Notes: a model not told the origin generated them from the letters alone. DNA of 64,000 nt from Prevotellaceae bacterium (GCA_031279695.1 JAITIA010000140.1:12935-76934), one strand, 5' to 3'. Shown: positions 52,014-52,512, counted from the first letter of the stretch. A program made the numbers and translations.

Positions 52014-52175
52014 GGCAAAAAATCCTGCCCTTACCGTCCAAAAATCTCAGTTCAATCCGAAAATCGAAGCAAAAAATTCGCCTGATCTGCAAAAAAAATG
52101 CATCTGAAATACCATTGATTTTCAGCGAAATCAAAAAAAATATTTTTTTGTTCAAAAAAAGTTTTGTACTTTTGC
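52014..52175 (+). repeat. Copy A of a three-copy intergenic repeat family (about 165 bp core) carrying a TTTG / TACTTTTG promoter at its 3' end
   Basis: About 90% identical to 55792..55955 and 56785..56945. Shared core ccttaccgtccaaaaatc..atcgaagcaaaaaattcgc.tgatctgcaaaaaaatgcatctgaaatac.attgattttcagcgaaatcaaaaaaaatatttttttgttcaaaaaaagttttgtacttttg. Confidence 0.85.
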
Positions 52176-52235
52176 GGCGCGTTTCAGTGAGATATTGACG
52201 CGCCGCTAAATTGAAAGTATTTTATAAAGAAATTT

Positions 52236-52448
52236 ATGACAAAGAGTAGTTACATCACAGGCAAAAATCGTTTTTCCGCACTTCAAAACAGTGGGGTTGT
52301 AACCGTTTTGTGTATCTTCGGTGCGTATTTTTTTAAAGTCGTGAATTTCCTTTTTAATTGTGGCACTGTTTTTGTAGAGAGAGAGAGAGAGAGAGAGAGA
52401 GAGAGAGAGAGAGAGATAATCAGCGAGTTACGCATGGTTTCGGAATAA
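52236..52448 (+). CDS. Doubtful small ORF (70 aa) spanning a (GA)20 microsatellite that would encode (ER)n; more likely part of a small non-coding transcript
   Basis: ORF lies between the repeat-A promoter and a strong terminator. Its low-complexity ERERER tract derives from the dinucleotide repeat. Confidence 0.25.
   Translation: MTKSSYITGKNRFSALQNSGVVTVLCIFGAYFFKVVNFLFNCGTVFVEREREREREREREIISELRMVSE
52377..52416. repeat. (GA)20 perfect dinucleotide microsatellite
   Basis: Direct reading of the sequence: a 40-nt uninterrupted gagaga run. Confidence 0.95.
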
Positions 52449-52473
52449 GAATTTTACATGAATTTATAATAAA

Positions 52474-52512
52474 CCCCACCGCAAAGTTTTGCATTGCGGC
52501 GGGGCTTTTTTT
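52474..52512 (+). terminator. Rho-independent terminator (ccccaccgcaa-agttttgca-ttgcggcgggg + T7)
   Basis: GC-rich 11-bp stem with one mismatch, followed by ttttttt. Confidence 0.7.

Follow-up and report, generated by a model that had tools for sequence, protein, structure and literature searches.

A (GA)20 tract in a promoter-to-terminator leader unit upstream of an SPFH operon in a Prevotellaceae genome: a possible slipped-strand switch with a layout that recurs in Bacteroidales

This study examined a stretch of 64,000 nucleotides from a Prevotellaceae bacterium, taken from a metagenome-assembled genome (MAG; GCA_031279695.1 JAITIA010000140.1:12935-76934) and hereafter called the window. 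It concentrates on a short unit, 52175-52512, in which a perfect (GA)20 tract lies inside a small open reading frame (ORF) between a promoter motif and an intrinsic terminator, upstream of an operon that starts with a gene for an SPFH/Band7 protein. The way in which the frames leave the tract depends on the number of GA copies, and the layout recurs in Bacteroidales; the unit could therefore be considered as a phase-variable leader-ORF/terminator attenuator of the downstream operon, a reading whose probability we place a little short of even. The features on which the argument draws are given below, counted from the first letter of the window.

52014-52174, plus strand: first copy of repeat A, a module of about 160 nt that carries a promoter, found by blastn within the window.
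52147-52174, plus strand: promoter of the Bacteroidota type, with a -33-like TTTG (52147-52150) and the -7 box TACTTTTG (52167-52174), read by eye.
52174-52206, plus strand: GC-rich hairpin GCGGCGCG...CGCGCCGC at the predicted 5' end of the transcript.
52236-52448, plus strand: leader ORF of 70 aa, starting with ATG and reading MTKSSYITGKNRFSALQNSGVVTVLCIFGAYFFKVVNFLFNCGTVFV-(ER)6E-IISELRMVSE*, with the stop TAA at 52446-52448.
52359-52376, plus strand: pre-tract motif TGTGGCACTGTTTTTGTA, encoding C-G-T-V-F-V.
52376-52416, plus strand: perfect A(GA)20 tract, with (GA)20 itself at 52377-52416; a presumed slipped-strand hypermutable element.
52417-52432, plus strand: post-tract box TAATCAGCGAGTTACG, a 16-mer whose TAA (52417-52419) is an immediate stop for n = 18, 21 or 24.
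52417-52630, plus strand: alternative post-tract frame (n = 19, 22 etc.), open for 71 codons across the terminator, with its TAA at 52628-52630.
52474-52512, plus strand: intrinsic terminator, a hairpin CCCCACCGCAA/TTGCGGCGGGG (52474-52504) followed by C and T7.
52642-53796, plus strand: gene for an SPFH/Band7 and GYF_2 protein, the first downstream gene, with its ATG at 52642.
53832-54566, plus strand: gene for a 244-aa protein, the second downstream gene.
54611-55696, plus strand: gene for a 361-aa Zn-ribbon protein, the third downstream gene.
55793-55952 and 56786-56945: repeat A copies 2 and 3, extending to about 56019 and 57013, respectively.

The AG/GA run at 52376-52416 was reported by Tandem Repeats Finder as 41 nt of period 2, with 20.5 copies, 100% matches and no indels. 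The GA 12-mer has 17 overlapping matches in the window, every one of them within this tract, against 0.03 expected, and none of 100 shuffles equalled that count; this run is the sole GA tract of such kind within the 64 kb. A scan of 185,579 species genomes for the exact pattern (GA)15 gave at least 120 matching stretches, and the loci cited below by L numbers are numbered among the matches listed. Therefore, GA tracts of this length are uncommon but far from unique. In an independent assembly, the Logan assembly of SRR14710902, a contig begins within the GA tract and then continues into an identical right flank. The Logan contigs of the window organism break both inside the GA tract and inside repeat A, and the contig that starts in the tract is uninformative on tract length. 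Apart from the source contig, the proteins encoded by the window's flanks were found on short Logan contigs of SRR14710902 alone.

Concerning the start of the unit, Bacteroides promoters follow the consensus TTTG/TAnnTTTG, and the promoter was called by comparing the sequence by eye with this published consensus. TTTG lies 16 nt upstream of the -7 box, the 5' edge of the unit (52175) is the next base after the box, and this type of promoter agrees with the Prevotellaceae source of the MAG. Both motifs are located at the 3' end of repeat A, and each of the three copies of this repeat ends at TAnnTTTG; the other two copies show 95% and 91% identity over about 162 nt, with the match ending at the -7 box (blastn, window). 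Copy 1 precedes the GA leader and copies 2 and 3 precede two Phd/YefM-PIN toxin-antitoxin pairs unrelated to each other in sequence; repeat A looks like a portable promoter/operator module. The hairpin at 52174-52206 has a folding energy of -20.2 kcal/mol (z = -3.99, equalled by none of 200 shuffles), and copies 2 and 3 carry a hairpin at the equivalent place, with the stem TTATCTG/CAGATAA in the place of GCGGCGCG/CGCGCCGC and the loop GAGATAT common to all three. A 21-mer of repeat A gave no match in genome_contigs and only a single chance match, in mammalian-looking DNA, in metagenome_contigs; therefore, the repeat could not be traced outside the window.

The leader ORF crosses the tract, which it reads as (ER)6.5. 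Its portion before the tract comprises 46 codons, with a 28-residue hydrophobic stretch in the N-terminal part, and its ATG stands in an A/T-rich context without a Shine-Dalgarno sequence, as for other genes of the window. The ORF has no match in Pfam or NCBIfam, and an exhaustive HMMER search with its 47-aa non-repeat part gave 0 matches among 1.8 billion representatives. By exact look-up, none of ten leader ORFs of this kind, including that of the window, is present in a collection of 15 billion proteins, indicating that the family of (GA)n leader ORFs described below is unannotated.

On either side of the tract, the window shares nucleotides with other genomes. The pre-tract motif TGTGGCACTGTTTTTGTA aligns with CTTTGGCACGATTTTTGCA (L125), CTTTGGTGTGATTTTTGCA (L081), GTTTGGTGCGATTATTGTA (L057) and CTGTGGCATGATTCTTGCA (L053), with changes that are for the most part in third or conservative codon positions (GGC/GGT, ACT/ACG, NTT); the window and these four Prevotellaceae/Bacteroidales loci have in common the pattern ...TGGnnnGnTTnTTGyA, in which the window has one mismatch, A for G. 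The post-tract 16-mer TAATCAGCGAGTTACG follows the tract in identical form in another Prevotellaceae MAG (L110), and the close variant TAATCAAGTAGTTACGGG follows the tracts of L077 and L059. As the box is read as IISELR in the window and as SNQRVT in the current frame of L110, the post-tract reading frame is not conserved.

The folding energy of the terminator hairpin, -18.9 kcal/mol (z = -3.46), was equalled by none of 200 shuffles. Because every frame reads (GA)n as alternating Glu and Arg, slippage never creates a stop inside the tract, and the outcome depends on where each exit frame ends. In the window, the three exit frames stop at +3, +32 and +214 after the tract. The assembled length, n = 20, yields the tail IISELRMVSE and stops at 52446-52448, 25 nt before the hairpin; n = 18 or 21 stops at the TAA at 52417-52419, directly after the tract; and n = 19 or 22 opens the 71-codon frame, which ends 11 nt before the ATG of the SPFH gene. 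Thus, two of the exit frames come to a stop 15 nt or more ahead of the hairpin, and the third continues through it. An open frame as long as 52417-52630 was obtained in 1.85% of the dinucleotide shuffles of the interval. As a separate observation, the 10-mer ATTGCGGCGG in the 3' arm of the terminator (52493-52502) recurs 41 nt downstream at 52534-52543, where it overlaps a weaker terminator-like site (52539-51).

The order of the SPFH, 244-aa and Zn-ribbon genes is kept in the nearest relative (L003/L004), whose SPFH homologue (64% identity) lacks a GA unit within 500 nt upstream, indicating that the GA unit is not ancestral to the SPFH operon. PADLOC detected no known defence system among the genes at 52642-55696. 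Between the terminator and the operon (52513-52641), no TAnnTTTG consensus was seen by eye.

A preliminary description of this DNA, made from the sequence alone, had pointed to a perfect GA run between a promoter in repeat A and a strong GC-rich terminator, crossed by an ORF that would encode (ER)n, and each of these elements was found again at the place described. Its statement that such repeats are rare in bacteria holds insofar as they are uncommon, whereas the number of matches in the species genomes shows that the present one is not unique. To judge from the sequence comparisons, it had overlooked that the leader ORF has a conserved non-repeat part and that the GA unit belongs to a recurrent Bacteroidales family.

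Among the (GA)15 matches listed, the same mini-unit occurs at more than 20 loci of Bacteroidales and Flavobacteriales. The carriers include two cultured species, Dysgonomonas alginatilytica (DSM 100214; two loci, L024 and L122) and D. hofstadii (DSM 104969; L068), as well as Porphyromonadaceae FC4, several MAGs named 'Tannerella', 'Prevotellaceae' and 'Prevotella', Paludibacter, and two Flavobacteriales loci. On the GA strand, the tract is preceded at 100-210 nt by a TAnnTTTG box, an ATG ORF leads into it via an NNA codon (TTA, GTA, GCA or CTA), one frame has a stop 3-14 nt after the tract, an intrinsic terminator usually follows 30-95 nt after it, and a same-strand gene begins 100-370 nt after it. 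Of 23 loci, 17 have an ATG-initiated ORF, 25 codons or longer, that runs into the tract, whereas 2.2 would be expected from dinucleotide shuffles (P<5e-6), and 12 of these 17 ORFs are 25-30 codons long. The window has the promoter box, the tract-entering ORF, the pre-tract motif and the post-tract stop, with a leader of 46 codons compared with about 27. The leader peptides are nearly unconserved in sequence except for their last 5-7 residues. The unit also occurs in duplicate: L059 and L077, from the same MAG (Lab288P1bin72), hold near-identical GA leader units, both with n = 16 and with about 200 nt shared upstream, and since the two copies sit in different gene contexts, the promoter-leader-tract module duplicates within genomes.

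Tract length in homologous units ranges from n = 16 to at least 56, and the frame currently used varies among loci, differing even between the window and L110, whose tracts are of unequal length, despite their shared post-tract box; such differing exit frames are expected of a switch and not of a protein whose C-terminus is functional. The 11 loci that have a clear terminator each combine one or more early-stopping frames with one or more that enter or cross the hairpin (joint shuffle probability about 0.005), with the stops of L107 and L122 located in the hairpin loop. Frames that come to within 20 nt of the start codon of the downstream gene occur in 5 of 13 loci, compared with 2.1 expected (P about 0.03), and in L062 the frame meets the downstream start as an ATGA overlap. 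For the longest open frames across the family, Fisher's combination gave 6e-5.

As to the genes next to the family units, CarbopepD_reg_2 and Plug domains are present in the neighbouring large gene of L110, L122, L106, L048, L047 and L043, which identifies the neighbours of these six loci as SusC-type TonB-dependent receptors; the tract of L043 is (TC)n when read in the direction of the SusC gene. L107 is next to a hybrid two-component system (HTCS) sensor, and L021, L058 and L089 are next to genes for large secreted proteins. Since no more than a few percent of the genes in Bacteroidales are SusC paralogues, SusC-type neighbours in 6 of about 24 loci represent a strong enrichment, which argues for a cis relationship between tract and neighbour. 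SusC, HTCS and secreted proteins are gene classes usually under phase variation.

Based on the sequence, action in cis on the downstream operon is the most likely role of the unit, since one post-tract frame crosses the terminator to 11 nt before the next ATG; this was a further aspect missing from the preliminary description. In the mechanism that we propose, transcription would start at the repeat-A promoter and ribosomes would translate the short leader ORF into the GA tract, where slipped-strand mispairing could gain or lose GA units and so set a new exit frame. With n = 20, or with n = 18 or 21, the early stop would allow the hairpin to form, and most transcripts would terminate at 52512, a low or OFF state. 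At n = 19 or 22, ribosomes would cross and block the hairpin, transcription would read through into the operon (ON), and the stop close in front of the SPFH start codon may additionally help re-initiation. The preliminary description had already suggested a slipped-strand phase-variation switch, and this claim fits the comparative anatomy of the family in its frames, ORFs and terminators; it falls short of proof.

Several points weigh against the proposed attenuator. We infer from the sequence the hypermutability of the tract, the translation of the leader, the anti-termination by ribosomes and the dependence of the operon on this promoter, and the mechanism assumes that transcription and translation are coupled tightly enough in Bacteroidota. 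A separate promoter may lie within 52513-52641, an interval that was inspected by eye. The frame statistics are only moderate, because the short distances before the hairpin make hairpin-reaching frames likely by chance. L110, L106, L021 and L058 have no convincing terminator, and the conserved nucleotides before the tract do not share the frame of the ATG ORF in L124 and L053, which hints at a constraint at the nucleotide level. Further, the leader of the window, with 46 codons and a hydrophobic character, is longer than the norm of the family, and the downstream gene in the window encodes an SPFH/Band7 and GYF_2 protein, not a surface receptor.

The closest known system is the pil1 pilus locus of Streptococcus gallolyticus, a switch characterised experimentally by Danne et al. 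(2014, PLoS Pathog; PMC3894217). In pil1, 22 GCAGA repeats lie in the ORF for a leader peptide of 38 aa, and the stop of this ORF precedes a hairpin of -18.7 kcal/mol by 39 bp; out-of-frame changes in repeat number give a longer peptide that ends within or after the hairpin, the ribosomes cover the hairpin, and pilus transcription rises (PMC3894217). The window shares with it the order of promoter, short ATG leader ORF with repeat tract, stem-loop terminator and operon, a leader stop in the low frame shortly before the hairpin (at a distance of 39 bp in pil1, compared with 25 nt in the window), a shift of the stop into or past the hairpin at out-of-frame tract lengths, and almost the same hairpin energy (-18.7 compared with -18.9 kcal/mol). 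The differences concern the repeat unit (GA, 2 nt, in contrast to GCAGA, 5 nt), the host (Bacteroidota with a TTTG/TAnnTTTG promoter and no Shine-Dalgarno sequence, in contrast to Firmicutes) and the targets, which are the SPFH operon in the window and SusC-type receptors at other loci in place of pili; the flanks are unrelated and show no sequence homology. Additionally, the long frame of the window runs to the next start codon, which suggests an added translational coupling that sets it apart from pil1. The window unit would thus work like pil1 by every sequence-level criterion tested, without being its homologue, and pil1 is the only published example of leader-peptide/terminator phase variation that we found.

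Dinucleotide contingency loci within genes are represented by the CT repeats of Helicobacter pylori oipA (PMC10564699) and the AG repeats in a Type III methyltransferase gene of Mycoplasma mycoides (PMC3498834). As in these loci, the window has a perfect dinucleotide tract in a reading frame, in which one unit shifts the frame, and the association is with envelope or surface genes; however, their tracts are in the structural gene, so that OFF means a truncated protein, whereas the tract of the window is in a separate upstream ORF before a terminator and its effect on the operon would be indirect. The trp, his and leu leaders of Enterobacteria are leader-peptide attenuators of amino-acid operons, and they resemble the window unit in having a leader ORF before an intrinsic terminator, with the position of the ribosome deciding whether the hairpin forms. 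In contrast to these attenuators, no alternative anti-terminator pairing was identified in the window unit, its input would be a heritable change in DNA length and not the supply of charged tRNA, and its downstream genes are not biosynthetic for Glu or Arg. Attenuation that senses Glu or Arg supply was also considered and rejected, since the downstream genes are unrelated to those pathways.

Phase variation in Bacteroidota is generally attributed to invertible promoters. In Bacteroides, such promoters phase-vary capsule, S-layer and SusC/SusD-like genes (for example, bioRxiv 10.1101/521070). The GA units share the clade with them and would likewise subject this class of targets (outer-membrane proteins and those of polysaccharide utilization loci, PULs) to a stochastic ON/OFF control, but the window has no inverted repeats flanking the promoter and no nearby recombinase, and its variable element is a simple sequence repeat (SSR). 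In the literature on GA/AG repeats or SSR phase variation in Bacteroidota, no description of a GA leader element was found.

Other explanations of the unit have to be weighed against the proposed attenuator. It is rather unlikely, although worth serious consideration, that the unit is an independent small-protein gene with its own terminator, encoding a partly hydrophobic peptide with a variable, charged (ER)n tail, while the operon is regulated separately; slippage would then alter only the tail or the length of the peptide. Such a gene would suit the conservation of the tract-entering ORF as an ORF, the pre-tract codons, which look protein-constrained, the presence of a promoter and a strong terminator of its own, and the hydrophobic stretch of 28 residues in the N-terminal part of the window peptide. 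It is difficult to reconcile with leader peptides that are barely conserved beyond their last 5-7 residues, with a C-terminal tail whose frame differs between homologous units and with the lack of any homologue among the 1.8 billion representatives; besides, SusC or large secreted genes lie on the same strand 100-370 nt downstream, which favours a cis role, and at several loci an open frame extends as far as the next ATG. The possibility that the hydrophobic peptide is a type I toxin was set aside, as hydrophobicity is not common to the leaders of the family. We consider it improbable that tract length, and not frame, acts on the DNA or the nascent RNA, where H-DNA or an R-loop would slow RNA polymerase and tune elongation into the operon, with the leader ORF merely keeping ribosomes on the RNA. 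Triplex and R-loop behaviour of GA/GAA tracts is established in other systems, the tract is a perfect mirror homopurine run, GA is nearly always on the sense strand upstream of a gene, and n varies from 16 to at least 56 among homologous units. However, an effect of length by way of a presumed structure leaves the conserved immediate post-tract stop and the geometry of frames and terminator unexplained, and the orientation is not strictly kept, as the tract of L043 is (TC)n in the SusC sense.

The absence of any function, with a neutral microsatellite having expanded in a repeat-rich, junk-like intergenic region, has a low probability. The 1.2-kb intergenic region is indeed full of repeats and hairpins, including repeat A and an element at 51500-51768 that resembles a miniature inverted-repeat transposable element (MITE), and the SPFH gene of the nearest relative lacks an upstream GA unit; against this, the flanking anatomy recurs at more than 20 loci in several Bacteroidales families, including cultured isolates, and the motifs before and after the tract are common to other genomes. 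The preliminary description had also offered a small RNA (sRNA) with a purine-rich sponge, that is, a trans-acting sRNA of about 340 nt whose tract would sponge a protein or pyrimidine-rich RNAs, and this option, which we now hold to be very doubtful, was not supported. The promoter-to-terminator unit has the size of an sRNA and its ORF is unannotated everywhere. Nevertheless, searches of the whole window at the Rfam gathering threshold and of 51400-52700 at E<=10 returned only tRNAs, a group II intron fragment and noise, with no match for the unit; its fold gave z = -1.5, with 8 of 100 shuffles folding as well; and what the family conserves is an ATG ORF that enters the tract in a fixed frame (present in 17 of 23 loci), not a structure, and a constant position upstream of same-strand genes, which points to action in cis. 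Least credible of all is an origin in the assembly, either as an artefact or through chimeric joining at a low-complexity k-mer. The source is a MAG, and short-read assemblies break at such tracts, as seen in L001, which starts in the tract, and in several family loci, which end in theirs. An independent assembly, however, has the same junction of tract and right flank, the presence of repeat A on both sides of the tract indicates that both flanks come from one genome, both flanks carry family motifs found also in isolate genomes, and 41 nt is well under read length.

Beyond this single locus, it is conceivable, though on balance we lean towards doubt, that unannotated (GA)n leader ORFs are widespread in Bacteroidales and some Flavobacteriales as heritable slippage switches of the frame that gate the read-through of transcription, perhaps together with translational coupling, into SusC/SusD and envelope operons, and that they may be particularly frequent in the single MAG series described at the end. 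If so, Bacteroidales of the gut and of the insect gut would toggle nutrient-uptake and envelope operons via repeat slippage in tiny leader ORFs, and a second, recombinase-independent system of phase variation would exist in a phylum thought to rely on invertible promoters, adding a layer to PUL regulation and to the evasion of phage and host in Bacteroidota. Leader-peptide/terminator phase variation would then extend to a distant phylum with a different mode of translation initiation, and the breaks of assemblies at GA-tract sites would have a reason. As cultured Dysgonomonas carry the unit upstream of susC, a direct test is feasible.

Other features were noted in the window and in the scan. 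The MITE-like element at 51500-51768, about 270 nt long, has inverted ends GGGGTGTCAAAAATATG...CATATTTTTTACACCCC and holds a perfect 16-bp palindrome CCCTTATTCCCTTATT...AATAAGGGAATAAGGG; a Logan contig of the window organism ends within it, at about 51537. On the minus strand, 3557-14104 is an ORF of 3515 aa, most of which consists of tandem repeats of 42 nt (14 residues) that form many diverged arrays. An intergenic tandem array at 33582-33835, with 11.5 copies of the 22-nt unit TTTCAGTAAAACCTGTATATCT and 93% matches, looks like an array of iterons or binding sites. At 63260-63374 and 63404-63482 (minus strand), a 3.6-copy array of a 32-nt unit adjoins a match to group II intron domain V/VI (RF00029, 54 bits).

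About 27 of the 120 listed GA loci (L006-L125) belong to one MAG series (names in the style of Nc350_bin194 and Gx485_bin125; 'k119_' contigs; JAIR-JAIT; Lab288), which spans Bacteroidales, Spirochaetaceae, Desulfovibrio, Planctomycetaceae and Clostridiales and in which many tracts lie at contig ends. This series probably comes from termite guts, for which no confirmation was found in PMC9137090. Desulfovibrionaceae genomes recur among the listed (GA)15 matches. In MAGs of Clostridia and Gastranaerophilaceae (L115, L116, L006 and L025), short ORFs carry the GA tract a few codons downstream of their ATG (L115 at 1284-1309 and 2179-2220; L116 at 6260-6291, minus strand, on the reverse-complemented locus). 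The ORF of L115 runs into a prepilin-like hydrophobic N-terminus, MKIVEAV(RE)nSSNLENAKGVTLIALVITIIVLLILAG, and this locus resembles a classical SSR switch situated inside a gene of the pilin type.

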